DNA from: Candidatus Uhrbacteria bacterium
GTDB lineage: Bacteria > Patescibacteriota > Patescibacteriia > JACPHY01
Direction of reading: 5' to 3'
Assembly: GCA_016188355.1 (NCBI GenBank)
Contig: JACPHY010000002.1
Span: 596-64,595 of the forward strand
Length of the DNA: 64,000 bases
Shown here one piece after another: positions 11,068-45,195 of the stretch. Position 1 is the first letter of the stretch, and each line of letters begins with the position of its first letter. Made by a program: the position numbers and the translations under genes. The notes beneath the pieces were generated by a model. The model saw nothing but the letters and a program-made list of their open reading frames with translations, had not been told where the DNA came from and did not search any database.

Positions 11068-14000
11068 TCACGGGGACGGCGGATACGGAGGGCCGGAGCA
11101 TTGGAATGTGGCGGGCTGGGAGATACGGACGTGACGGACGACGGATCCCGACGCAGTGAACTGCGGCACAAGAATCAGCTCAAGTGGTCGGCTGCTCCCG
11201 AATCGACCCAGCGTATCGGTCGGCGTACGTGTGGAGCTATATCCCGCGGCTCCTGGCACGTTGACTGGCTTGCGCAGCACAATCTGCTGTCGCTCCATGA
11301 GTTTCGGCCGCACCGCATCCGTGGGTGCGATGCCAACGCGCCCCAGCTCCGCACCTCCTGCACCAAGCTCCCGAAGCACCAGGGTCGCGTCCGGTACTCC
11401 CTCCTCAAGGAGCACATCGAAGGTGAGCGTGTCATAGAGGCGCGCCGCAGGGAGTCGGATCGGGAGTTCCGCACCATTCGCGACGGCAGTGCCACGACTT
11501 GGATCAATGCCGGTCGCACCGAAATCCGCGGTGACACGATCGAAGGCGCCGGGACACTGACTCGTGCACGTCAGACTGCAGAGCGGTCCATTCCACGGAC
11601 TCGTCGCGCGATCTGCGGCAGCGATATCACATGCCTCTGGACCATTCGCACCATCCTGTTTGATGCCATCCCCACAGAATCCCCCACGCTTCGTCGCGAC
11701 CGTGCACGTATTGGTCAAACAGTAGTTACAGGTACGTCCGTATGCGCACCGCGCGTTCGGGACACACTGCGCGTCCTGCGCACCAGAACAGGCTGCACGC
11801 CAGTTCCCGACGCCCACATCACACTGTTCCGCCGCGCATCGGCCATTGCGTCCGCACTCCGTGCTCGAACGACACGGCTGTCCCAGTTTCCCCGCGTCCC
11901 CCGCAACGCAGGTGGAAGCGAGCACCGCCCCATCACCGCACACATTGTGCTTGCACTGACTCGTACACGCATCCGCATCACGGTCACACACTCCCCCCGA
12001 ACCGCATTCCGCATGAGAACGACACACCCGTTGCGGATCATTGATACATCGCCCCCTCCCCCCGTCATCACACTGCTCCCCGAAGTCCGCCCGACCCTCA
12101 CGGCCATCTTCCACAACGCCATTACCACATCGCGCGCTCGCCACCTGACACGCACCCCATCCGGCGTTCGGCGCGCCATTCGTTGCGCTCCCATTTGCAT
12201 CAAGCACCTTGCAGGCATTTGGTGTTTGCGGCGCGCCACACGTACGCACCTGCGTCGCCTCAAAGGCCACACGTTCAATCCGAAGGTTGGCATCGTAATA
12301 ATCCCGTATACACCCCCCCGAACCACAGGTAGGCGATGCCGCAGCACATGACTCCTGCGTAGCAAAACGACGCGTCCGATCATTCTGGCACGCCCATGCG
12401 CTACCCCCGTTATTCCAATCATTATCCCAGGTGAGGGTAATTTGGTGTGGGGTGTCCGTAGTGCCGGACGCTACACCACGAAGCACCAGCTCATTATGCT
12501 GCAGTTGCGAGGACGCAAGCGCCCAGATGGTGCCCACCGCATTTCCATCGAGCGCCACGCGGATGCGATGGTACACCCCACGTCCACCACGGGTACCTGT
12601 GGGATTCAAATCGGACAGCACCTGTTCTGGCCGGAGACTCGCCTCCATAACCTCTCGCGACACCGTGCCCGGATCACCTCCGGATGACTCCACATTTTGC
12701 GTCACGAGCAACAACTTCACATCTCCCGCTCCGCCATTTTGCGACCGAATGGTTCCTCGGAGCGTAATAGTTGATGGCGTGGACCCATCACCATAGGATC
12801 GCCACCCACCGGAGGAATTTGCCCATTGAGATCCGGTCCATCCCACCCATTGGAGGTTCCCATTATTCTCCACCACGCATGACCGCGATTCATCGCCATC
12901 GCATTGCTCCTGATTCGCGGTCTGGATCTCACGATCCCCACAATACCCCCCCGTCGCGCGGCAAGGCCGCGGGGCGTCTGCGGCGGTGCAGGCGTATTGG
13001 GACTGCGCAGAGGAAGCGGATGGTGTGGTTGCCCTATTGGCAGGACCATCACACTGCTCGCCATACGCCGCCTGAATAATTTCGTCACCGCAGCGCATGT
13101 ACGTCGCCGGACCGGACATACGCCAGGTGCAGTTCGGCGAACATTCGTATGCCGTGCCCGAGGTGATGCCTGGTGCGGTACCACCAGCAGCAGGCACCCG
13201 ACCACCACGCGGACCCACGTCGCACTGCTCGCCCGCATCCACAATGGCGTTCCCGCATTGCGATGACCATGCGCTCCAATCAGACCATTGACACGTCACG
13301 GAACACGTCCGATGCCGCGACTGACGTCTGCCATCTTCGGTACGCTCCTCCGTTCCCACCTGCCCACGCTCACACGCTTCTCCGGCCTGCTGAATACCAT
13401 CACCACATCGGCCACTTGCGCCGTATGTTGTTCCGTTCGGAGTCGCACAAATACCCCCATCCACCCGTATGCCGGTTCGAAGGGCAGGGACGATGGACGA
13501 CCCCGCAACCACCTCCAGCTGCGAACCGAGTTCGGTCGTACCGTCCGCTAATCGCCGGTACTGATACACATACGAACCCGCAGGACAAGAGTACGTACCC
13601 GCGCGTTCACTCCAACACGTCTGCGGGTCGAATAGACGATCTTCCTCACACCGCCGCTGGCCTTCCGGCTGTGCTGCGCATGCGGCATCGTTCACGCAAT
13701 CCGGACCCACGCCACCACACCGACGGATCGACGTACATCGTCCGCCGAACTGGTTCAACGGATCCGATGGCAACGTACTCCCGAGCTGCGCGCCCAACTC
13801 CTGTTGCCAGGACGGCCAGCGACTCACGGACATGCCAGGAATAAAGGTGCCCGCGTTGAGATCAGGACCAAGCGCCATGCACTGTTCTCCCGCAGGACAA
13901 TCACCATCCGCCGCACAGGATCGCGGGGTGATGGTACATCGGCGCTGGAATCGCTGCACGACTTCACGCAGCTCCACGAGATCCTCCATGCGCTGAACAT

Positions 14001-17000
14001 CACGCATGAGTTTATCCTTTGGCGCGCGGCAACTCCCCTGCGCCGTGCCCACACGACAATCCAAATCCGATGTACAGGAGATCCCCGCACACGTACCCCC
14101 CGCTGTTCCACAATCCAAATCCCGTGCGCATGCCGCACCGCTCGTCGTGCAGCGGCCAAAAATCGCACCTGCGGCCACTATGCCCTGCGGCACACACATG
14201 CGCACATTCTGATCGCTCAAATTGGTCGCGAATCGGATACCCTCCAGAATCTGCTGCAGCACCTCTTGCGTTTCCGCAACTGCGCCATCATTGAACGAGA
14301 GCACCGCCAAATTCGTGAAGACGCTTCCGGCACGTACATTCGGCACGTGCAGATACGTCGATCGACCCGCGCGCACCCCGCGGGATCCATCCACTGTGAT
14401 GGGCGTATTCGCATCCGTGAATCCCTGCTGCTGGAACCAACGATCCGCGCGCACATGTCCTTCATTTTCGTAAAGACGCAAGCCCAAAGCATCCTGCCCC
14501 GAACGGCAGAACTGACCCGGAGGACACGTTCCCGGTACATCCGGCTCACAGCGATCGCCGGATTCCGAACAGTACGACGCACCACGCGGCAGGAAGAAGA
14601 ACTCCTTCCGAAGCTCATCACGTCCATTACCCGACTGCACACCAGCAATCTGCCGCGCGACCACATTCGGCGCGATCGCGGGGAGATCATCCCGGAGCGC
14701 GAGCAGGCACTTGAGCGGTGCCATGCATTCCGCATCGCTCCCGCAGCTCCGCGCATCTACGGGTTCGATCGTACCCGGAGCGCGGCATACCTTCCGAGTC
14801 CCCGCATCGCGGCAGTAAGCAAAAGAAATGTGCTCGTCGGTGAGCGGAGAAGGATCGGCGCCCACACAGGTGAACCCGTTCATGCAATCCGAATTCGCCG
14901 TGCAGACATTCGCGCGCATACTACCACTCACACATTGACCCATCGCCGGATACGGCTGCCAGGTCGCCGCATTCGTGACCGCCGGCCACGGATTCTCGCA
15001 AAGGAACACCCGGAACGGCGCCCGCGCACTGAATGGTCCGGCTGGCGCATTGATCGTATTCACGGTGATGTCGAGCTGCGCGAGCGCGAGGCCCTGTCCA
15101 TTCTTCACTGCCGCGGCAGGATGGAAGAAACAGGACGCGTGCGGACCATCGTTGCAGCGCCCGGGTGATGTAGGATCGATATCCGCGACATCGGAAGCGG
15201 TGGATTGCCATTGATACCGCCATTCATATGAGCCGGCCACCGGCCCGACCAGCTGCAACTTCCCGGATGGCAATCGACCCATCGGGGACACCGAGAACGG
15301 AAAATCCATTCGCTGTCCGACGCGCTGGAAGAGGTAGGATGCAGGCTGCATCTGAAGCGTCTCGATCGTGCAGTAGCGACCACCCACCATGAACGTCCAT
15401 GCCGCCCCCCCAAATCGCACGCCATCCATGGAACGCAACGCGATCGGCTTGCCCGCAGCATCTTCATCTGCCGCCCCAAAGAACCGCACGCGATGGAGAC
15501 GACTCGGAACGAGTCCTTTCGGCGTCTCAAATATAAGCTCACTCACGACACGATCTTCCTCCTGCACCTCACGGAGAATTGGGGTCGCCTCCACGGGACG
15601 CCAGTTCGCATCGGAATCCAACGTGCACACACGACCACTGGGACAGTGCTCCAGTATCGCGCCTCGGTACGTCGATGCGCTGGTGACCGCATCGACGACG
15701 ATACCCACGGACGCCGGATCCATGCGCTCGGTGAATCGCGCGGTGACCACCGCATTGATACAGATATTCGTCGCACCCGGATCCGGCATCTCTGATCCTG
15801 ATACGATGGCCGGACGCGCACGACAGCACCCGGAACGATCCACACCGTTCACGGCTGGGGTCAGACATTGCGTGTCGCGCGAATATCCGCACTGCAACTG
15901 GATGGCCACTCGCCCATCCGCGCCGCGCACGCCTGCAATCAACTCCGTAGATTGCATCCCCTCCGCATCCGCAACCCCACCACCAACTGCCTGCACGATT
16001 TGCGCAGGATCGGGCGGATCGGCAACATTGCCCCCATCGCACTGCTCACCGCCGAAGGGACGACCACCGGAACCATCAAACGCGATTCCATCTCCACAGA
16101 GTGCCGGATGCGGTGCGCCGGAAACCGGATCGCGCCAGGCGATCGATGCGCCCTCGAAGAGACATCGCGCGGAGCAACCATCTCCGCTCACGGGTTGACG
16201 TTCCACGCATGATGCGCCCCCACAATCCCCATCCGATGCGCACGTTCGACCCGCGCGTGATCCCGGTGCACATACTCCCACCGCACCATTATCGCACTGC
16301 TCACCGCGGTCCAGTTGACCATTTCCGCATGTCCCCGGTGGGGTATCGACGATCGACCGGGTTCCTGTAAAAATACAGTGCTCAAAATCACATCCCTGCG
16401 ACACCCATACGGATCGCGGATCATCATGCCAATCACACTCCTCTCCTCCAGCCACCCGACCGCCGCGCCCATCCGCCACGATCCCATCACCACAACGTGC
16501 GAGCACCCCATTCGGCGCGCGCACAGGGTCGTACTGCGGCCGCGTACCTTCATGAAGGCATTGACTGGAGCATCCGTCGCCGTTTTCAGTATTGCCGTCA
16601 TCGCAATCCTCACCATCCCCCAACGGTTCCGCGGGACGACCTGGCGTCACCGGTGTTCCGCAGCGCGATCCTCCCGCGCGCGCCCCTAAACGCAAGCAAC
16701 TCGCGGGGTCACACCATGCAGGCATGGTGTTGTTTTGGAGATCACATTCTTCACCCGCATCAATATCTCCATCTCCACACGTGCCCCCCCGAGCAACGGG
16801 TCGCGCGCCACGCAGCAAACAATTCTCCGGATTACAGGAACTCGGAAATCCGGTCGCCTCCGCCTCGCACTCCTCCCCCAATTCTCGCAGACCATTGCCA
16901 CAAATACCGGTGATCCGCACGGACCCGGTGGGAAGGCACTGCAACGTACACGCAGACGATGCGGCAATCGTCGTTCTCGTGAGCGTTGTTTCCGTTGGTG

Positions 17001-20000
17001 CGCCCGGTGCCGCAAAGGTGCCCGCAGTAGTCACCGTCGTGAACCCGGCAACCGCGATATCACGGATGCTCCATCCCCACGGCAAAGAATCGGCGCGAAG
17101 CGGCTGTCCCTCTGGTGCACATCGATCGGGCGCGCTCGTGGGCACCGCCGTCACCCAGGCGCGTTCCCCGACCACCGAAAAGGTGAGCGCTGCCGGTATT
17201 GTCTCCACCTTCTGCACCTCACAGCGCCCTCCGCGCGTTCGGAAAATCCAGGAGCGCGCATCCAAAGACCCATCACCATCGGAATCAAAATTCAATCCCT
17301 CCAACGGAACGCCCCAGGCACTCGTCACCTCGCTCGTCAGCAGTACGCGATAGGGAGTATTTTCCCCAAGCTCAGGAGGAGAAATGCGCAAATGCGGCTC
17401 TTCGGTCACCCGAGTGCCCGCACAGGGATCGTTCCCGCCGGATTCACGTGCGGGGCATACCTGTACATTTGCCGGTCCCAAGGGAATCTCCGCCGTCAAC
17501 GCATCCCGTCGGCAATTCTCCTGCGCGCACTGATACATGCGCACCTCAAACGCCGCGCTCGCCGCAAGCGGCACGTTCGTCACTGCGGCCACGACGGTAT
17601 TCGTGCAAGCCTCCTGACAGCTCTCCGTGGGAATAACCCGAGTTACCCGAGGTCGCTCGAACCGCACCGCCACATCACTAACACCCGAAACCTCTCGATT
17701 GCCTGCCGCGACGATTGCCTGCACCCGCACCGGCTGCGTCGGGGTCTCCCAATGAGCGCGTGCGGTGATGGTGGTGGGCAGATTTTCACACCGACGGTTC
17801 GTTCCACAGAAATTGGTACGGCAATGCCCCGCTCCGGTATCACAGGTAGCACCCAACGACGCGCACTGAGCATCCTGTACACAAGGAATGACGCCGCACT
17901 CTGATTCCACCGCGCACCAACGACCACTTCCATCCACATCACCCGCTACGTACGATCTCCCTGCCACCGCGGGGGGAGAGGGCGGCTGTACCACCCGCCA
18001 CGCATCTACGCGCTCGAGCGCAAGCGTCGTACAGGTCGTAGGATCATTAACGCCCGCCGCACTAATGTGGACGAGGGATGGCAGGTCCGCCGATTGCGTA
18101 GCAGAGAGCACCTGCTGTGGCGTCGCTCCCGGTTCCACCCGCTGCGTGGCGACTGCCGATTGCGGCGTCATGAGAATCTCCCGCACAGCGCACGGTTCCG
18201 CAGATGCCCGCGTCTGAAATCGGAATCGGTAGTTCCCACCTTCCTGCCCATCTCCATCGCCATCAAGTGCCAACTGCTGCGCTCCCGCGCTCCGCAATGC
18301 GAGTTTCGATGCGGTCGTCGCTCCAATCTGCTCCAGGGTATCGCTGCCATACACCACTACTTCATACGTGGCTCCTGGAGACCATCCACCATTCGGCGGC
18401 GCAACATTCACAATGTTGCCCCGATGATTTGTTCGACCGCCCGCATCACTGACCGTTACTGCACCAGTGGTCGCAAACTCACGAATCACGCACGCATCCC
18501 CCTGACGCACAACTTCAAGATCATCCAAATCCGCGGCATATACTTCGTCCGATCCCTGCTCCGCATCTGGCGCGGGCGCGGTGAGATAGATGCGCACAAA
18601 ACCAGAAGCAACGGCATTCGGGCCGCGATCGAACGTGATCGACGTGGCAAGTTCCTGCCAAGTATTCTCGAGCACGACCTCCCGCGCGGACTGCTGCCAC
18701 CAACCCGCATCCGTCACATTCGGCCCACCTGCGCGACCAATCACGATGCCGACACGCGCATTGGGATTCCGCTGTGCATTCCGACCACGAACCATCACTC
18801 GCGCGGTGTAGGTGGTTCCGCCAGTATCCGTCACGAGCGACGCTGGAGCTTCAATAGCGTACGCAATACGGTCCACCGTCGCATCTCGGGGGAGACCAAC
18901 GGCGACCGGTTGTCGTCGATATGCGACCGAATCGGCGACCGCCGCCGTACGTTTCGTCAATCGCAAAACGCCGGTGCCGCCGTGCGCCGCGGTATCTTCC
19001 GTATTTATGAACGTCGCCTGCACGTGTTGAGGGTCCAGTGCGGTCCAAGCCGTCACATCCGTAGCGCGTTCAAATCCACCCCCAAAATCGGTCGCCACAT
19101 TACGACCGCCCGCACACCGGAACACCTGAATGCCGCGTGCCGCTCCTGCGCTCAAAAACTCCGACGAAGATGTCGGGTCCCCCATGCTCATGCTGAATTG
19201 CACGCGCACATTTGCGTTCGTGCATGCCGAACCCCCCGTTCCCTGCTGATCCCAAGGAGACGGGCTGAATGCACCGCAGGACTCCACTACCCGAGGCACC
19301 CGCGGTACCGCGCCAGTGGCAAAGGTCCATTGGTACGCGCCCACATTCGGCTCGGATTCGCACCGCGTCCCCGACGCCACGCATGTGCCATTGCCGCAGC
19401 AGATTTGTCCGCTGGGACACGCATTCGCCGTGCCACCTGCTCGACAATCACGCACCTCAAATTGCACCGGATTCGAACCGCGGTTCGTGGCCGTAGGCGC
19501 ATCTGGATTCTCCCCAGTCACCCACAACCGGAATGGTCCAGTCTTTGCCAGTATCGGAACGAGAATCCCCTGAATTTTCTGCTCCGTCCATGCGAACTGA
19601 TCTCGATCGGATGCACCTACGATTACTTGATCATGGAACCGCATCGTCCCCGCCGCACTCCCAAACCGTTCACCCACAATCGTCACCGGCGTACGCGCAG
19701 GTCCACGATGCGGCGCAATCGCACAAATACCGGGAGTCGCAGGATCAGTGGTGACGGTGAATGGCACCGCATTCGAAGCAACGTCCGTTCCCCGAGGATG
19801 TACACGAATCTCAAATTGCCCCAACGCGGAAAAATCCGAAGGCGGCGGACTCTGACCAACCGGAGCCCACTCCTCGCGATTCGCAGGGATGCGAATCGTA
19901 ATCTCGTTGGCGCGCCACCAATCTTGACGACACGCATCTGGAAAACGCGGCACGATATCGTACCGCTCCGTGCCTCGCGTGAAGGTAATGCGACCCATCT

Positions 20001-22014
20001 CCGCTCCAAAATGCTCACCGCGAATGGTCACGTACTGTCCGAATCCACCGCGACGAGGAGTGATCTCCTGAATGCGCGGAATGATCGGTTCCGGATCGCG
20101 AGTGAACCGAACGGCATTGGATGTCTTGGTGCCATTCGCCACACGAACCTCCACCAGTCCCTCGGCGATCACCGGGACGCGCACCTGAATCGCCGTGGCG
20201 CTCCATGCCGACGTCTCCGCAGCGAGATCACCAAAATACACGGCGTCCTCTGCTCCCCGCGTCGCACCAAACTGCACACCCGATACCGCAATCACCGCAC
20301 CCAATTGCCCGTGTCCCGGATCCAATGCGCATAGCCCCGGTCGCTGCGTGGTGTTCCTCCGAAAATCCTCAATGGTCGATCCACGCGCATCGTCCGTGCG
20401 ATCACGGAATGCGGGTATATCGGAAGTCACGACCTGTAGTGGACCGTTCGGTGCATTTTGCGGAACCACCACAATCACCTGCGTGTCCGACCATGCGGAG
20501 CTGCAGGACGGCGGCAGTGATGCGGTCACATCATCCGCATCGCCATCTTGCCCGAGGAACACGATACTCCCCGGCACCGTACCAAATCCGCTCCCACGGA
20601 TGGTGAGGTAGTTCCCCGGAGCACCGTTTGGCGCAACGATCAATTCGGTGCCCGCGGGCGCATCTTCTCGCCGCGCAAACGTTTCTCCCGTTGTTCGGCT
20701 CACGAGCGCTTGCGGGGAGACATCGGTAATGAGCGGTCCGTCGTCACAACGGCAGGAGGCGGTATGACACCGGAGTCCTTGCGTGCAGGATCCTGGCTCA
20801 CACTGTTCGGTTGCCGCGTTCGCATCGCATCGCGCACCGATACCTGACGGTCCTGGACCCACCGCACAGGCGTCGGCGAGCAAGCACTGACCCGTCGAAC
20901 AACAGGCCGACTGTGTACACTGCGCGTTCGCGCTGCAGGTAACGGTAAACGGATAACCATTCGAGGACTGCGCGCCGCGCACCACGCGAATCTCGCCACT
21001 CAACGCGCCAGTTGGCACATTTACCGTTATGTTGGTCGCCGACCACGTCACCACCGATGTCGCATCGATGCCCCCGCCAAATTGCACATTTCCTTCCCCT
21101 CGCGTCTCCCCGAAGAGCTTCCCCTCCATCGTCACCACAGTCCCCTCCGGTCCCTCGAGCGGCGTCAAGCAGGCAATTTGTGGACCAAGGATTTCTGTAT
21201 TCACCTGGAAATTCACCGTCCCGGAAGACAGGGCACCACCAGCGGCGGTCACTACCACCCCATATGAACGCCCTGATGGCAACGTCGGAACCTCTACCAC
21301 AATCAAATTATCCGACCAATTCGGCACCCCACTGCAGGCAACCACCGGTGCCACCGTGCCTCCGATACGCACCGCAGATTGTCCGTCCACGAAGGACCCG
21401 AAACGGAACCCACGGACAGTAACGTACGATCCGACCGGACCACTCACCGGGGTCACACTGCACACGTGGGGCGCGGTACCACCGGGATCACGGCATCCCG
21501 CAAGACGATTGCCCTGCGGGGGAAGCGTATTGTCCCCGGGAGGACCCGCGAACATCACTCCTCCGGACGTTCCGGTCGCCTGCTGCAATCTTCCCAAGAC
21601 GAAATGGGCAATGCTGAAGGACATGAGGATGATGGCGAGGCCAATCACCCCATTCGTGATCGTTCGTTTCGCGCGGACCACTTTCTCCTCATTCCCGCTC
21701 GCGGTCATCCAGAGGAAACCGCCGGTGAGCATGATGCCAACCGCAATGATGCCGAGGAAGCCGAGGAAGGCGCGAATGATCTTTGCGATGGTGATGCGGA
21801 TGTCTTGTACGGCAAGACCGGTCGCCGTTCCGTAATCAATGCCAGTATTCACCTGTGCCACAACCGGTGACGCGGCAACGCACCACACCAACACGAGCGC
21901 GACCGGGAACGCCCATCGTCGCACATTGCGCCACGTGAACGCGCGCCGAAGAAGTCGGCGAGCGCGCAATGCAGCGAGGAGATGAAGCACAGTACGCATG
22001 CGAGTCATGATCAT
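11068..22014 (-). CDS. Giant secreted/surface protein (~3650 aa): signal peptide, VirB2/TrbC-pilin-like two-helix N-terminal module, multiple IPT/TIG domains, many Myxococcus-type cysteine-rich repeats (CGDG...GEECD)
   Basis: Single uninterrupted ORF; probable start at ATG 22014 (MIMTRM...), 2 nt after the upstream gene stop; repeated CGDGI/CGNGQ...E(E/Q)CD motifs; VTPVSGPVGSYVTVRGFRFG-type IPT units. Confidence 0.7.
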   Translation of the reverse strand: MIMTRMRTVLHLLAALRARRLLRRAFTWRNVRRWAFPVALVLVWCVAASPVVAQVNTGIDYGTATGLAVQDIRITIAKIIRAFLGFLGIIAVGIMLTGGFLWMTASGNEEKVVRAKRTITNGVIGLAIILMSFSIAHFVLGRLQQATGTSGGVMFAGPPGDNTLPPQGNRLAGCRDPGGTAPHVCSVTPVSGPVGSYVTVRGFRFGSFVDGQSAVRIGGTVAPVVACSGVPNWSDNLIVVEVPTLPSGRSYGVVVTAAGGALSSGTVNFQVNTEILGPQIACLTPLEGPEGTVVTMEGKLFGETRGEGNVQFGGGIDATSVVTWSATNITVNVPTGALSGEIRVVRGAQSSNGYPFTVTCSANAQCTQSACCSTGQCLLADACAVGPGPSGIGARCDANAATEQCEPGSCTQGLRCHTASCRCDDGPLITDVSPQALVSRTTGETFARREDAPAGTELIVAPNGAPGNYLTIRGSGFGTVPGSIVFLGQDGDADDVTASLPPSCSSAWSDTQVIVVVPQNAPNGPLQVVTSDIPAFRDRTDDARGSTIEDFRRNTTQRPGLCALDPGHGQLGAVIAVSGVQFGATRGAEDAVYFGDLAAETSAWSATAIQVRVPVIAEGLVEVRVANGTKTSNAVRFTRDPEPIIPRIQEITPRRGGFGQYVTIRGEHFGAEMGRITFTRGTERYDIVPRFPDACRQDWWRANEITIRIPANREEWAPVGQSPPPSDFSALGQFEIRVHPRGTDVASNAVPFTVTTDPATPGICAIAPHRGPARTPVTIVGERFGSAAGTMRFHDQVIVGASDRDQFAWTEQKIQGILVPILAKTGPFRLWVTGENPDAPTATNRGSNPVQFEVRDCRAGGTANACPSGQICCGNGTCVASGTRCESEPNVGAYQWTFATGAVPRVPRVVESCGAFSPSPWDQQGTGGSACTNANVRVQFSMSMGDPTSSSEFLSAGAARGIQVFRCAGGRNVATDFGGGFERATDVTAWTALDPQHVQATFINTEDTAAHGGTGVLRLTKRTAAVADSVAYRRQPVAVGLPRDATVDRIAYAIEAPASLVTDTGGTTYTARVMVRGRNAQRNPNARVGIVIGRAGGPNVTDAGWWQQSAREVVLENTWQELATSITFDRGPNAVASGFVRIYLTAPAPDAEQGSDEVYAADLDDLEVVRQGDACVIREFATTGAVTVSDAGGRTNHRGNIVNVAPPNGGWSPGATYEVVVYGSDTLEQIGATTASKLALRSAGAQQLALDGDGDGQEGGNYRFRFQTRASAEPCAVREILMTPQSAVATQRVEPGATPQQVLSATQSADLPSLVHISAAGVNDPTTCTTLALERVDAWRVVQPPSPPAVAGRSYVAGDVDGSGRWCAVESECGVIPCVQDAQCASLGATCDTGAGHCRTNFCGTNRRCENLPTTITARAHWETPTQPVRVQAIVAAGNREVSGVSDVAVRFERPRVTRVIPTESCQEACTNTVVAAVTNVPLAASAAFEVRMYQCAQENCRRDALTAEIPLGPANVQVCPARESGGNDPCAGTRVTEEPHLRISPPELGENTPYRVLLTSEVTSAWGVPLEGLNFDSDGDGSLDARSWIFRTRGGRCEVQKVETIPAALTFSVVGERAWVTAVPTSAPDRCAPEGQPLRADSLPWGWSIRDIAVAGFTTVTTAGTFAAPGAPTETTLTRTTIAASSACTLQCLPTGSVRITGICGNGLRELGEECEAEATGFPSSCNPENCLLRGARPVARGGTCGDGDIDAGEECDLQNNTMPAWCDPASCLRLGARAGGSRCGTPVTPGRPAEPLGDGEDCDDGNTENGDGCSSQCLHEGTRPQYDPVRAPNGVLARCGDGIVADGRGGRVAGGEECDWHDDPRSVWVSQGCDFEHCIFTGTRSIVDTPPGTCGNGQLDRGEQCDNGAVGVCAPGSRAGRTCASDGDCGGASCVERQPVSGDGCSARCLFEGASIAWRDPVSGAPHPALCGDGIAFDGSGGRPFGGEQCDGGNVADPPDPAQIVQAVGGGVADAEGMQSTELIAGVRGADGRVAIQLQCGYSRDTQCLTPAVNGVDRSGCCRARPAIVSGSEMPDPGATNICINAVVTARFTERMDPASVGIVVDAVTSASTYRGAILEHCPSGRVCTLDSDANWRPVEATPILREVQEEDRVVSELIFETPKGLVPSRLHRVRFFGAADEDAAGKPIALRSMDGVRFGGAAWTFMVGGRYCTIETLQMQPASYLFQRVGQRMDFPFSVSPMGRLPSGKLQLVGPVAGSYEWRYQWQSTASDVADIDPTSPGRCNDGPHASCFFHPAAAVKNGQGLALAQLDITVNTINAPAGPFSARAPFRVFLCENPWPAVTNAATWQPYPAMGQCVSGSMRANVCTANSDCMNGFTCVGADPSPLTDEHISFAYCRDAGTRKVCRAPGTIEPVDARSCGSDAECMAPLKCLLALRDDLPAIAPNVVARQIAGVQSGNGRDELRKEFFFLPRGASYCSESGDRCEPDVPGTCPPGQFCRSGQDALGLRLYENEGHVRADRWFQQQGFTDANTPITVDGSRGVRAGRSTYLHVPNVRAGSVFTNLAVLSFNDGAVAETQEVLQQILEGIRFATNLSDQNVRMCVPQGIVAAGAIFGRCTTSGAACARDLDCGTAGGTCAGISCTSDLDCRVGTAQGSCRAPKDKLMRDVQRMEDLVELREVVQRFQRRCTITPRSCAADGDCPAGEQCMALGPDLNAGTFIPGMSVSRWPSWQQELGAQLGSTLPSDPLNQFGGRCTSIRRCGGVGPDCVNDAACAAQPEGQRRCEEDRLFDPQTCWSERAGTYSCPAGSYVYQYRRLADGTTELGSQLEVVAGSSIVPALRTGIRVDGGICATPNGTTYGASGRCGDGIQQAGEACERGQVGTEERTEDGRRQSRHRTCSVTCQWSDWSAWSSQCGNAIVDAGEQCDVGPRGGRVPAAGGTAPGITSGTAYECSPNCTWRMSGPATYMRCGDEIIQAAYGEQCDGPANRATTPSASSAQSQYACTAADAPRPCRATGGYCGDREIQTANQEQCDGDESRSCVVENNGNLQWVGWTGSQWANSSGGWRSYGDGSTPSTITLRGTIRSQNGGAGDVKLLLVTQNVESSGGDPGTVSREVMEASLRPEQVLSDLNPTGTRGGRGVYHRIRVALDGNAVGTIWALASSQLQHNELVLRGVASGTTDTPHQITLTWDNDWNNGGSAWACQNDRTRRFATQESCAAASPTCGSGGCIRDYYDANLRIERVAFEATQVRTCGAPQTPNACKVLDANGSATNGAPNAGWGACQVASARCGNGVVEDGREGRADFGEQCDDGGRGRCINDPQRVCRSHAECGSGGVCDRDADACTSQCKHNVCGDGAVLASTCVAGDAGKLGQPCRSSTECGRNGRCAAEQCDVGVGNWRAACSGAQDAQCVPNARCAYGRTCNYCLTNTCTVATKRGGFCGDGIKQDGANGPEACDIAAADRATSPWNGPLCSLTCTSQCPGAFDRVTADFGATGIDPSRGTAVANGAELPIRLPAARLYDTLTFDVLLEEGVPDATLVLRELGAGGAELGRVGIAPTDAVRPKLMERQQIVLRKPVNVPGAAGYSSTRTPTDTLGRFGSSRPLELILVPQFTASGSVVRHVRISQPATFQCSGPPYPPSP

Positions 22015-41832: not shown

Positions 41833-42753
41833 TCACGCGATGCGCATTCCCTGCTCCGGAATGACCCTTCCACCACTCTGTCGCTCCCACTCCGGGAGGC
41901 GAGATGCATGCAGCACGACCGTCACCCGATCGGTACGATACGGCTGCGGCAGGATGTTCGGCGCATAGCGACGGAACTCGGTGCCCGTATGATTCGCCTC
42001 GAGGAACACGAAGCCCAGATGGCGCGAGATGCCCACGACCGGCGTGAGGTCCCACGGCGTCTGCATGCCGGGCTTCAAGAAATACGCACCCACCTCTCCC
42101 TTCCAGAGTCGTGCCATGCCGATCCCGATGCTCCCACCCTCAATCTCGTGCCCCGTGAAACATCCGGAGACCGCCACCGGACCGCACACCCGCGCCACCC
42201 AATCCGGATACACGTACAAGGGATCCCGCAGCAACGCGTATTGGGAATTGAGCGGACGCCCCTCCGGAATGCTCAGGGTCTCCGCAGTCTGGAAATCCGA
42301 GATGCGGTGCAGACGTGCAGAATCGGGACGATAGCCGTATATCTCCTCGGTGTTCACGTCACCCACGTACGCCGCGACCACCGCATTCGTGGCTCCCTGA
42401 TGCACCAACGCGAGCATCGTGCCCACGCCGTGCGATTGCCGACGATGGAATGCCTTGGTGCCATCGAGCGGATCGACTGTGAAGTAGTACGGCGTCTCCG
42501 GTTCGGGCGGCGAATCGCCACCTTCTTCGGCAACGATCCCGAACGTCGGGAAGCACTCCCGAATCGACTTCAGGTAGATCGCCTGCGCAGCGAGATCGGC
42601 GCTCGTCACGATGTCCTCTCCACCATCGTATCCCGGCTTCTGCCGTGCTTCGTACAGGACACGCTGCCGCCGGATTTCCATCAATGCGCGCCGCACCACC
42701 TCCTTCATGAAGATCCCAATCAGATGCTCGTTGCACTCCCCGAAACTCGACAT
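41833..42753 (-). CDS. Inositol monophosphatase / 3'(2'),5'-bisphosphate nucleotidase family protein
   Basis: DPLDGTKAF motif and overall IMPase-fold pattern. Confidence 0.75.
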   Translation of the reverse strand: MSSFGECNEHLIGIFMKEVVRRALMEIRRQRVLYEARQKPGYDGGEDIVTSADLAAQAIYLKSIRECFPTFGIVAEEGGDSPPEPETPYYFTVDPLDGTKAFHRRQSHGVGTMLALVHQGATNAVVAAYVGDVNTEEIYGYRPDSARLHRISDFQTAETLSIPEGRPLNSQYALLRDPLYVYPDWVARVCGPVAVSGCFTGHEIEGGSIGIGMARLWKGEVGAYFLKPGMQTPWDLTPVVGISRHLGFVFLEANHTGTEFRRYAPNILPQPYRTDRVTVVLHASRLPEWERQSGGRVIPEQGMRIA

Positions 42754-42785: not shown

Positions 42786-43889
42786 TTAAAAGTATCGCAT
42801 GTACGCGGTATTGTCAAGCGATACCTCTGCTGCGGTCGCCGGCGATGCGTCGCGCTCCCATGGGAACTCTGGACGACCGAAATGCCCGTATGCCGCAGTG
42901 CGCTCGTAGATCGGCTGCCGGAGCCCGAGCCGTTCAATGATCGCGAGTGGTCGGAAATCAAACTCACGGCGAACCAGCGCGGAGTGATCATTGCCCGCTT
43001 CGTCTACCGCGGTCACCATGAGCGGCTCCGCGCGCCCAATCGCGTACGCGACCGATACGAGGCACGACTGCGCCAATCCCCGCGCGACCATCGCACGCGC
43101 CGCGCACCGCGCCATGTACGCCGCGGATCGATCCACCTTGGTGGGGTCTTTCCCGGAGAATGCGCCGCCCCCATGCGAGATGAGCCCGCCGTACGTATCC
43201 ACCATGAGCTTCCGACCGGTCAGTCCAGTATCCGCAGCAAATCCTCCCAGGACAAAACGGCCCGTCGGATTCACCAGGACCTCTACCCTAGACATTTCGC
43301 CAATCGTTGGTGCGATGAGCTCCCGGACGAGCGCGTCACGCATGTGGGACAGCTCGGCATCTGCGGTGTGTTGCGTGCTGATGAGGACCGTCATCACACG
43401 ATCACCCTGGAGCGTCACCTGCGCCTTCCCATCGGGCTGCAGCCAGGGATGTCGACCGCTCCGCCGGAGCGCCTCCAAGCCCCGCGTCAACCGATGTGCG
43501 AGGGTAATCGCCTTCGGCATGTACTCGGGCGTCGCATGCGTCGCATACCCGTACATGATGCCCTGATCCCCCGCTCCGCCTGTATCCACGCCCATGGCGA
43601 TATCCGGGGATTGCTGCACGATGTGCACGCGCACATCGAGATCATCCGCATACCCAATCGCACGATACACGCGACGCGCAATCGCCTCCGCATCAATGGT
43701 GGCGTGCGTGGTAATCTCCCCGCCAATAACGAGCAGCCCATGACTCCCGAACGTTTCCACGGCCACACGGCTCATCGGATCCTGCGCGAGACACGCATCA
43801 AGAATCGCGTCCGAAATCTGATCACAGACCTTATCCGGATGCCCGGACGTCACACTCTCTGCGGTCACGTACTCTGGAAAGCGCAACAT
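42786..43889 (-). CDS. metK: S-adenosylmethionine synthetase
   Basis: GHPDKVCDQISDAILDA N-terminus; GGGAFSGKDPTKVDRS motif. Confidence 0.95.
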   Translation of the reverse strand: MLRFPEYVTAESVTSGHPDKVCDQISDAILDACLAQDPMSRVAVETFGSHGLLVIGGEITTHATIDAEAIARRVYRAIGYADDLDVRVHIVQQSPDIAMGVDTGGAGDQGIMYGYATHATPEYMPKAITLAHRLTRGLEALRRSGRHPWLQPDGKAQVTLQGDRVMTVLISTQHTADAELSHMRDALVRELIAPTIGEMSRVEVLVNPTGRFVLGGFAADTGLTGRKLMVDTYGGLISHGGGAFSGKDPTKVDRSAAYMARCAARAMVARGLAQSCLVSVAYAIGRAEPLMVTAVDEAGNDHSALVRREFDFRPLAIIERLGLRQPIYERTAAYGHFGRPEFPWERDASPATAAEVSLDNTAYMRYF

Positions 43890-44035
43890 AACAAAAAAAG
43901 ACGTTCCCCCACACTGAGGAAGCGTATGCGCAGTGCATCGTTCCCCCGCAACGGGGCTGGCAGTGGCACCACTCCGCGGACGTTCCGCGAAAGGTTGCCG
44001 GCAGGATCATGGGGCCAGGTCCCTCCCCTGCACTC
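43890..44035 (-). promoter_or_regulatory. SAM-I (S-box)-like riboswitch in the metK 5' leader
   Basis: Minus-strand RNA reads GUGCA-GGGGAGGGACCUGGCCCCAUGAUCCUGCCGGCAACC-(CGCGGAacguCCGCG)-GAGUGGUGCCA-(CCCCGuugCGGGG)-UGCAC; this matches the SAM-I core GAGGGA-CUGGCCCGAUGA-GGCAACC-GGUGCCAA and the P1-P4 layout; a GGGGGAAcgUCUUUUUUU tract precedes the ATG. Confidence 0.7.
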
Positions 44036-44187
44036 GGGATTACGTATATTGTTCGACCACTTCGAACGTAGCATCCTCCCCACGGATCGACAATGTGGAT
44101 GACTCCCCCCACTTCCCCGCGCGCGGTGATACGTTATGCTGCCGAAGGCGGCATCGCTCGTTCACAATTCCACCAGCCGGAGGCACC

Positions 44188-45195
44188 ATGCAGTACCCGC
44201 GCCATATCATCAGCACGGAACAGTTCCTCGACCGCGACCTCCTCCAGGATCTCTTCACCCTCACCGATCACTACCGAGCCGCAGACGCGGAGCATGCGGT
44301 GCCGCGCCCGCTCGTCGGCAAGCTCATCGCCAGCCTCTTCTACGAAGCCAGCACCCGCACCCGCATGTCCTTCGAAGCGGCGATGCGAAAACTCGGGGGC
44401 GACGTCATCACCACGGAGAATGCGCGCAAGTTCTCCTCAGTTGCGAAAGGCGAAACGCTCGCCGACACCATCCGCGTCATCGGAGGATATGTGGAGGCGA
44501 TCATCCTCCGCCATCATCAAGAAGGTGCCGCCGAACGCGCCGCAACCGTTGCACCGGTACCCATCATCAATGCGGGTGATGGCGCAGGAGAACACCCCAC
44601 CCAGGCACTGCTCGATCTCTACACGATCCGATCGGAACTCAAACGACTCGATACGTTCCGCATTGCACTCATGGGAGACCTCCGCTACGGACGCACCATT
44701 CACTCCCTCGTACGCCTCCTCACGCAGTGCCCCAACGTGCACGTGTACCTCGTCTCGCCCGAAGCGCTTCGCCTTCCACCGCAGTACATCCACATCCTCA
44801 ACGCGCATGGCATCCCCTACAAGGAAATGATCTCCTTCGAGGAAGTGCCCCGCAATCTCGATGTGGTCTATATCCTCCGCATCCAGAAGGAACGCAAAAA
44901 ACACTCCGAGGGGCGTCGCTCCGCAGGGAAGGATCTCCACGAAAAAGCGGCTCCCTCCCCCGCAGCGCCCCACGTCCTCCACGATCAACTGCATTGTGCT
45001 CCGTACCGACTGGATCCCGAGGTGCTGGAACGCTGCGCACCGAACGCCATCATCCTGCACCCGCTGCCGCGCACGAACGAACTCGATCCTGCAGTGGACC
45101 GCAGCCCCCGTGCGGCGTACTTCCGACAGGCACGAAACGGCCTCTACCTCCGCATGGCACTCCTGAGTCGCGTGCTCGCGCCCAACCATTTCTGA
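44188..45195 (+). CDS. pyrB: Aspartate carbamoyltransferase catalytic subunit
   Basis: STRTRMSFEAAMRKLGG and HPTQALLDLYTI motifs; GGAGGCA RBS before ATG 44188. Confidence 0.9.
   Translation: MQYPRHIISTEQFLDRDLLQDLFTLTDHYRAADAEHAVPRPLVGKLIASLFYEASTRTRMSFEAAMRKLGGDVITTENARKFSSVAKGETLADTIRVIGGYVEAIILRHHQEGAAERAATVAPVPIINAGDGAGEHPTQALLDLYTIRSELKRLDTFRIALMGDLRYGRTIHSLVRLLTQCPNVHVYLVSPEALRLPPQYIHILNAHGIPYKEMISFEEVPRNLDVVYILRIQKERKKHSEGRRSAGKDLHEKAAPSPAAPHVLHDQLHCAPYRLDPEVLERCAPNAIILHPLPRTNELDPAVDRSPRAAYFRQARNGLYLRMALLSRVLAPNHF

Follow-up and report, generated by a model that had tools for sequence, protein, structure and literature searches.

SAM riboswitches of the SAM-I or S-box class (RF00162) are exemplified by the yitJ and metK leaders of Bacillus subtilis and by the metF aptamer of Thermoanaerobacter tengcongensis, for which a crystal structure is available (2GIS). 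Two other members of the same clan (CL00012), SAM-IV (RF00634) and the SAM-I/IV variant (RF01725), have a similar ligand core around P1, P2 and P3, but are not known to carry a SAM-I-type P4 at that position and possess other peripheral elements and pseudoknots. In the open-access literature, we found no description of SAM riboswitches in CPR/Patescibacteria. The leader described here precedes metK in a 64-kb stretch of DNA (the window in the following) from a Candidatus Uhrbacteria metagenome-assembled genome (MAG); it is a SAM-I (S-box) riboswitch of the ordinary kind, with a predicted switch between terminator and antiterminator, and a newly recognised, unannotated example of a well-known riboswitch class. 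Like the described SAM-I riboswitches, it has the P1-P4 junction, the pseudoknot between L2 and J3/4, a site upstream of metK, the motifs AUC...GAG, GGAGGGA, UGA, GGCAACC, GGUGCC and GAU, as well as the predicted logic of a SAM-OFF terminator/antiterminator, in which the 3' strand of the aptamer is common to the antiterminator. It differs from them in its short and bulged P1 (3+2 pairs), in the first two positions of J1/2, which are CC and not AA, in the closing pair of P4, which is G:C and not U:A, in a U-tract located 3 nt ahead of the start codon with no separate Shine-Dalgarno (SD) sequence, in a score just under the Rfam cut-off and in its host, which belongs to CPR/Patescibacteria. It is very probable that this riboswitch turns off the metK transcript when S-adenosylmethionine is abundant, and probably also the adjoining gene of the inositol-monophosphatase (IMPase)/CysQ family; SAM binding and termination at the metK leader are inferred.

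The leader lies on the minus strand at about 44043-43893, within a divergent region of 298 bp between metK and pyrB (start ATG at 44188; TIGR00670 match, 317 bits). An initial annotation of this DNA had already proposed a SAM-I-like riboswitch in the metK leader and had given this region as common to metK and pyrB, which we can confirm. The two genes on the downstream side of the leader are:

42786 to 43889, minus strand: metK, the regulated gene, encoding a methionine adenosyltransferase of 367 aa (TIGR01034, 429 bits; ATG at 43889)
41833 to 42753, minus strand: gene of the inositol-monophosphatase/CysQ family, 32 nt downstream of metK, with weak NCBIfam matches to HisN, CysQ and IMPase

MetK has a fully (100%) identical counterpart in a Candidatus Uhrbacteria MAG, and its nearest relatives are all from CPR/Patescibacteria. 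The pair of metK and a PF00459 gene is also present in the sister Uhrbacteria contig L081 (MetK 85% identical), where the IMPase/CysQ-family gene occupies positions 1290-2204 and the gap between the genes again is 32 nt. In the window, this second gene has its own AGGAG ribosome-binding site; it is probably co-transcribed with metK and would therefore also be under the riboswitch. A pAp-phosphatase-like enzyme tied to SAM synthesis would make a reasonable sulfur-metabolism pairing. Elsewhere in the window, an ORF on the minus strand (11068-22014) reaches the very large size of 3648 aa. At 44132-44150 (either strand), in that half of the divergent region which is closer to pyrB, AUGCCGCC-UUC-GGCAGCAU makes up an imperfect, GC-rich hairpin some 40-55 nt ahead of the pyrB start codon; a search of 43800-44200 with Rfam in E-value mode gave no match at this hairpin, PyrR element included, and it may be unrelated to the metK switch or part of a pyrB leader. 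Reading the leader as coding sequence (ORFs 43831-44112 and 43865-44083) was rejected, since the window and L081 differ there by indels of 1, 2 and 4 nt and their substitutions track RNA stems, not codons.

In E-value mode, the 401-nt region 43800-44200 gave an RF00162 match on the minus strand at 44040-43937 (43.8 bits, E = 6.8e-09, model positions 6-103 of 108). The Rfam check suggested for the proposed riboswitch thus yields a significant match, but one that stays 0.6 bits below the RF00162 gathering score of 44.4 bits, which is an operational annotation cut-off and not a structural feature. The shortfall arises because the outer part of P1 is weak or unpaired, so that the match covers model positions 6-103 only, and it is this fraction of a bit that makes standard annotation overlook the riboswitch; Rfam at gathering thresholds returned zero matches in the whole 64-kb window, not even a tRNA. 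Independently, a covariance model (R2), made from 15 metagenomic CPR leaders with the window, L081 and the leader L085 excluded, found the element at 44048-43932 with 60.5 bits (E about 1e-16) as its sole match in the 64 kb. The assignment to SAM-I/S-box therefore stands. The location given in the initial annotation is correct as well, except for the 5' end at 44035, as the true start of the aptamer, at 44040-44043, is about 5-8 nt upstream of it. All the sequence elements quoted there are found on the minus strand, including GGGGAGGGACCUGGCCCCAUGAUCCUGCCGGCAACC (44028-43993), the CGCGGA/UCCGCG hairpin (43989-43984 / 43980-43975), GGUGCCA (43970-43964) and the CCCCG/CGGGG hairpin (43956-43952 / 43948-43944). 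The parts of the aptamer, all on the minus strand, are:

43935 to 44043, minus strand: complete SAM-I aptamer, a P1-P4 four-way junction with pseudoknot (RF00162, R2, pair list)
44038 to 44043, minus strand: P1 5' strand GU(A)AUC, with AUC 44040-44038 as canonical core and G44043 and U44042 beyond the bulged A44041
44037-44034, minus strand: J1/2, CCGA (Rfam alignment, pair list)
44000 to 44033, minus strand: P2 (Rfam alignment; covariation)
G44033:C44000 plus GCAGG 44031-44027 / CCUGC 44005-44001, minus strand: P2a, with U44032 bulged
GGA 44026-44024 plus CAUGAU 44011-44006, minus strand: K-turn signature in P2
GGG 44023-44021 / CCC 44014-44012, minus strand: P2b
44020-44015, minus strand: loop L2
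43965 to 43999, minus strand: P3, with base GGCA.CC / GG.UGCC, distal stem UUCGCGGA / UCCGCGGA and loop ACG
43957 to 43960, minus strand: J3/4, CCAG, forming the pseudoknot with CUGG 44018-44015 of L2
43940 to 43961, minus strand: P4, with closing pair G43961:C43940, stem CCCCG 43956-43952 / CGGGG 43948-43944 and loop UUG
43935 to 43939, minus strand: P1 3' strand GAUGC, common to the 5' arm of the antiterminator

The window makes every canonical pair except the four outer pairs of P1: the modelled pairs of P2a, P2b, P3 and P4 are all formed, and the four letters of L2 and of J3/4 pair perfectly in the pseudoknot. The base of P3 contains conserved SAM-pocket nucleotides, and the pocket letters G44035, GGCAACC (43999-43993) and GGUGCC (43970-43965) correspond to the invariant RF00162 consensus; following the published SAM-I structures, we take these to be the nucleotides that contact SAM. 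The K-turn is seen at the level of its sequence signature, with GGA 44026-44024 and AUGA 44010-44007 aligning with the gGA and UGA columns of the consensus. Junction, pseudoknot, K-turn signature, pocket motifs, gene context and platform logic are all those of SAM-I; the exceptions are the Rfam cut-off, the only point on which the element fails, and a P1 that is unusually short. That the leader instead carries another member of the clan, SAM-IV or the SAM-I/IV variant, might be considered in view of the mention of SAM-IV in the initial annotation, of one lower-scoring overlapping clan match (suppressed in favour of RF00162), and of the organism being high-GC and not a Firmicute, as are many SAM-IV hosts. 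We see next to no probability in this, as RF00162 is the best-scoring clan member here, a canonical P4 hairpin (43961-43940) separates J3/4 from the 3' strand of P1, the pseudoknot of L2 with J3/4 is of the SAM-I type and covaries, and P2 contains the K-turn signature.

The predicted aptamer fold and its conservation are supported by homology and covariation. The 41-sequence alignment of metK leaders was guided by a model (R1) whose seed contained the window, and it is therefore biased towards the structure; this bias is addressed by a control with slid partners and by the model R2. Over the 41 leaders, the canonical SAM-I structure with its pseudoknot has 92.3% of its cells paired, with both sides changing in 25 of the 33 pairs, values reached by none of 500 shuffles, and when the partners were slid by 1-3 columns, pairing amounted to 35-49% only. 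P2, P3 and P4 helices are 87-99% paired with both-side changes in 17 of 22 pairs, P2 (helices 2 and 3) being 97% paired (both-side changes in 7 of 8 pairs) and P3 (helices 5 and 6) 99% and 87%, while the pseudoknot (helix 4) is 97.3% paired and changes on both sides in all four of its pairs. The closing pair of P4, which is G:C in the window and L081 only and U:A in 33 others, represents a double compensatory change. Altogether, covariation in the homologues extends to the P1 core, P2, P3, P4 and the pseudoknot. It should be noted that de novo RNAalifold on a MAFFT alignment gave P3 and the core of P4 only, and P1, P2 and the pseudoknot were recovered only with the model-guided alignment. The fold of the whole leader is no stabler than that of shuffled sequences (z = 0.11); for riboswitches with competing folds, z values near those of shuffles are usual.

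The weak P1 is the single real peculiarity of this element. Its conserved part comprises three contiguous, junction-proximal pairs (A44040:U43937, U44039:A43938 and C44038:G43939), the fewest among the well-aligned relatives, which have 4-7; four outer P1 positions are unpaired in the window, and two more pairs are possible past the bulged A. In SAM-I aptamers, A-U and U-A pairs of P1 beside the junction form a lining of the SAM pocket. P1 is probably extended by these two, U44042:G43936 and G44043:C43935, across A44041, and matching G:C and U:G pairs are present in L081, whose P1 has 7 bp (AUGUAUU/GAUGCAU). The gain from this extension is marginal (-45.6 vs -45.0 kcal/mol by folding), and P1 as a whole adds almost nothing, about 0 kcal/mol, to the calculated stability. 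The initial annotation had the junction closed differently, by GUGCA (44033-44029) and UGCAC (43937-43933) in place of the canonical P1, a helix extendable to CGAGUGCA/UGCACU.CG plus CGUA/UACG, and here we cannot follow it. The complementarity is real: the helix appears in the minimum free energy (MFE) structure of the 3'-truncated leader (end 43922), its energy of -45.0 kcal/mol compares with -45.0 to -45.6 kcal/mol for the canonical closure, and it is kept in L081 with G:U replacing G:C. Across the 41 homologues, however, only 40% of its cells are paired, with 41% in shuffles, and it would abolish the conserved G of J1/2 and two P2a pairs required by the family model and by covariation, GUGCA 44033-44029 belonging to J1/2 (its G) and P2a. 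As the closure of the junction it is extremely unlikely; the long helix is possibly, at most, a lineage-specific alternative fold of the ligand-free leader. The question of a lineage-specific P1 rests on one sister sequence, L081, since none of the 17 metagenome loci found with a relaxed pattern is closely related to the window; scanning the metagenomes with a core pattern of 27 specified bases gave no loci.

Between the aptamer and metK, a G-rich segment and a U-tract had been read in the initial annotation as part of a platform that either terminates transcription or sequesters the ribosome-binding site (RBS). Both the G-run (43910-43906) and the seven U (43899-43893) are present ahead of the ATG at 43889, and a hairpin followed by U7 is found, which may also hide the SD-like G-run. 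The platform consists of the following elements:

43916 to 43946, minus strand: antiterminator GGGGAACGAUGC-ACUGC-GCAU(A)CG(C)UUCCUC, its 5' arm being the P4 3' arm, J4/1 and the P1 3' strand
43893 to 43925, minus strand: predicted intrinsic terminator A-CG(C)UUCCUC-AGUGUG-GGGGAACG-U, then C and U7 (43899-43893) (terminator scan; folding)
43902 to 43910, minus strand: second copy of GGGGGAACG, a direct repeat of 43947-43939, serving as terminator 3' arm

The 3' end of the aptamer is repeated as the 3' arm of the terminator, so that the aptamer copy is able to pair with the same 5' arm, giving the antiterminator. The terminator scan returned three overlapping registers of one hairpin, where 0.2 would be expected by chance, and the hairpin is modest, with -8 to -9 kcal/mol, G-U pairs and one bulge. 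Calculated folding energies are -13.4 kcal/mol for the antiterminator, -8.1 to -8.8 kcal/mol for the terminator and -6.7 kcal/mol for P4. The antiterminator is present in the MFE structure of the free leader, and in the unconstrained ensemble its mean pair probability is 0.71, that of the terminator 0.09; with the aptamer enforced, which serves as a proxy for the SAM-bound state, the values are 0.04 and 0.43, respectively, the remaining terminator probability coming from this hairpin in another, shifted register.

Judged by these folds, classical SAM-OFF transcription attenuation is the most likely mode of action. By analogy with the SAM-I class, SAM bound in the pocket between P1 and P3 would lock P1 and P4, and folding as well as the comparative design suggest that 43946-43935 would then be unavailable; CG(C)UUCCUC (43924-43916) would instead pair with the repeat GGGGAACG (43909-43902), forming the terminator hairpin with its U7, and transcription would halt 4-10 nt ahead of the AUG. 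At low SAM, the more stable antiterminator (43946-43935 with 43929-43916; -13.4 vs about -8 kcal/mol) would disrupt P4 and P1 and use up the 5' arm of the terminator, allowing RNA polymerase to read through into metK. The terminator hairpin may in addition lower the translation of read-through transcripts, because, close to the start codon, its 3' arm alone resembles an SD sequence.

The same aptamer might also act mainly at the level of translation, with the SAM-stabilised hairpin 43925-43901 sequestering the G-run GGGGGAA (43910-43904) as RBS and the U-tract being a ribosome standby or S1-binding site, not a terminator. The stretch 3-11 nt ahead of the metK start codon is devoid of an SD core, whereas GGAGG precedes pyrB and AGGAG the IMPase-like gene, a comparison made with these two neighbouring genes, as a window-wide survey was too noisy (6/34 crude ORFs). 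The U-tract ends 3 nt ahead of the metK AUG, abuts it in L081 and nearly does so in L085; the 5' arm of the hairpin, UUCCUC, resembles the 16S anti-SD sequence, and the stability of the hairpin is modest for a terminator. On the other hand, the G-run, which is the only SD-like sequence upstream of metK, lies 16 nt (in L081, 12 nt) ahead of the AUG and so beyond normal SD spacing, and a hairpin with 5-8 U directly behind it is kept in most CPR metK leaders, in some of them 20-150 nt from the start codon; its conservation even at such distance fits intrinsic termination. We consider mainly translational control to be unlikely, if by no means negligible, and transcriptional and translational control are in any case mutually compatible and not exclusive.

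A sub-threshold score and an eroded P1 would also be explained if the leader were a decayed, non-functional SAM-I relic in a reduced genome: three contiguous P1 pairs are left, compared with seven in the sister genome, and the calculated contribution of P1 is close to nil. The comparison with the same sister genome argues otherwise. In the aptamer core (44035-43940), window and L081 agree at 88 of 94 positions (94%), whereas the 4-fold degenerate, synonymous sites of metK are 42.5% identical, which is near saturation, and this difference indicates strong purifying selection on the structure of the leader RNA. Identity amounts to 20/23 in the antiterminator region and 8/9 in the terminator 3' arm, with 2/6 in the terminator loop. 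L081 keeps both stems of the platform, with no change in those of the antiterminator; the differences are located in loops, the bulge and the outermost terminator pair, A43925:U43901, which is G:C in L081; apart from this one compensatory pair the changes in the platform fall into loops, that of the terminator having diverged. Since the remaining helices are likewise all intact, as are the pseudoknot and the conserved motifs of the pocket, a relic is very unlikely, and we continue to regard the leader as a SAM-I riboswitch subject to selection.

Upstream of the aptamer, two further features, both weaker, may be assigned:

44048 to 44052, minus strand: ACAAU, a probable remnant of the conserved ACAAYUGAAUA (from the upstream regions of 41 leaders)
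44065 to 44093, minus strand: candidate promoter TTGTCG (44093-44088), 17-nt spacer, TACGTT (44070-44065), weak and proposed from sequence

A consensus promoter scan of the region gave 0 promoters, the candidate at 44065-44093 falling below its criteria; in L085, an identical TACGTT hexamer is found 6 nt ahead of the leader motif. In metK leaders of CPR and Clostridia (L003, L005, L009, L013, L019, L022, L026, L028, L030, L032, L039, L040 and L053), ACAAYUGAAUA precedes the P1 of SAM-I by about 5-12 nt, and since a -10-like TAnnnT hexamer sits 6-7 nt upstream of it, the transcript probably begins with this motif. In the window and in L081, only GAACAAU of it is retained, and ACAAU (44052-44048) would probably lie at or near the transcription start. 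Taking ACAAT at these positions as the -10 box itself, with a start at P1, was rejected, as the relatives with clear promoters have their TAnnnT 6-7 nt upstream. ACAAYUGAAUA could be either transcription-start context or an extension of P1, and as a motif common to CPR and Clostridia it could constitute a functional part of S-box leaders of metK that has so far not been described.

The SAM-I class as such is not new for CPR, and standard thresholds find it in most CPR relatives: an above-threshold RF00162 match lies directly upstream of metK in 13 of the 20 closest CPR metK loci, and L081 likewise exceeds the threshold with 45.8 bits. The CPR metK leaders (L003-L028, L081, L085, L086-L101) resemble that of the window in gene context, aptamer and platform design, the common design being a 3' aptamer segment GGGRAAGAU that can pair with the terminator 5' arm and recurs, ahead of the U-run, as terminator 3' arm; other CPR leaders realise it as GGGAAAGAU / AUCUUUCC / GGAAAG-U(n). 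Most of them have 4-7 contiguous P1 pairs on UAUC/GAUA, the window being shorter, and only the window and L081 differ from the other leaders in carrying GAACG for GAAAG in both repeats, together with a matching CG in the terminator 5' arm. In two loci with a MetK 75-76% identical (L083 1458-1644 and L084 1204-1265), no SAM aptamer is detectable upstream of metK, and the riboswitch therefore is not universal even among near relatives. The SAM-I aptamer of a Lloydbacteria locus (L001 2652-2859) has an insertion of about 117 nt inside P3 and, because of large insertions, stays below the Rfam threshold with 42.2 bits; another one, at L096 9238-9436, has extended P2 and P4. In a Candidatus Kaiserbacteria MAG, we also observed a glmS ribozyme (RF00234, 52.6 bits) that closely follows metK (L011 4189-4382), so that a second classical riboswitch/ribozyme class is present in CPR genomes, too.

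A more speculative interpretation, which we put forward tentatively and hold to be rather improbable, combines several of the above-discussed features: a minimal bulged P1 (3+2) would leave it mostly to P4 and J4/1 to pass on the sensing of the ligand, and one and the same hairpin, its U-tract running into the start codon, would terminate transcription and sequester the SD-like element. If true, this would mean coupled transcriptional and translational control from one compact platform in an ultra-small genome.

For the ordinary SAM-I riboswitch that we favour, the importance of the finding is modest, and the understanding of riboswitch mechanisms is unchanged by it. It does show, on a concrete example, how a riboswitch that looks functional can escape default Rfam annotation when only a fraction of a bit is lacking; such members can be recovered by models specific to a clade or by thresholds that take the context into account, as for sub-threshold matches upstream of metK. 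To our knowledge, very few recognisable regulators exist in CPR/Patescibacteria. The SAM-I feedback control of SAM synthetase appears to be one that this Candidatus Uhrbacteria genome has retained, and that is widespread in the metK leaders of CPR/Patescibacteria.
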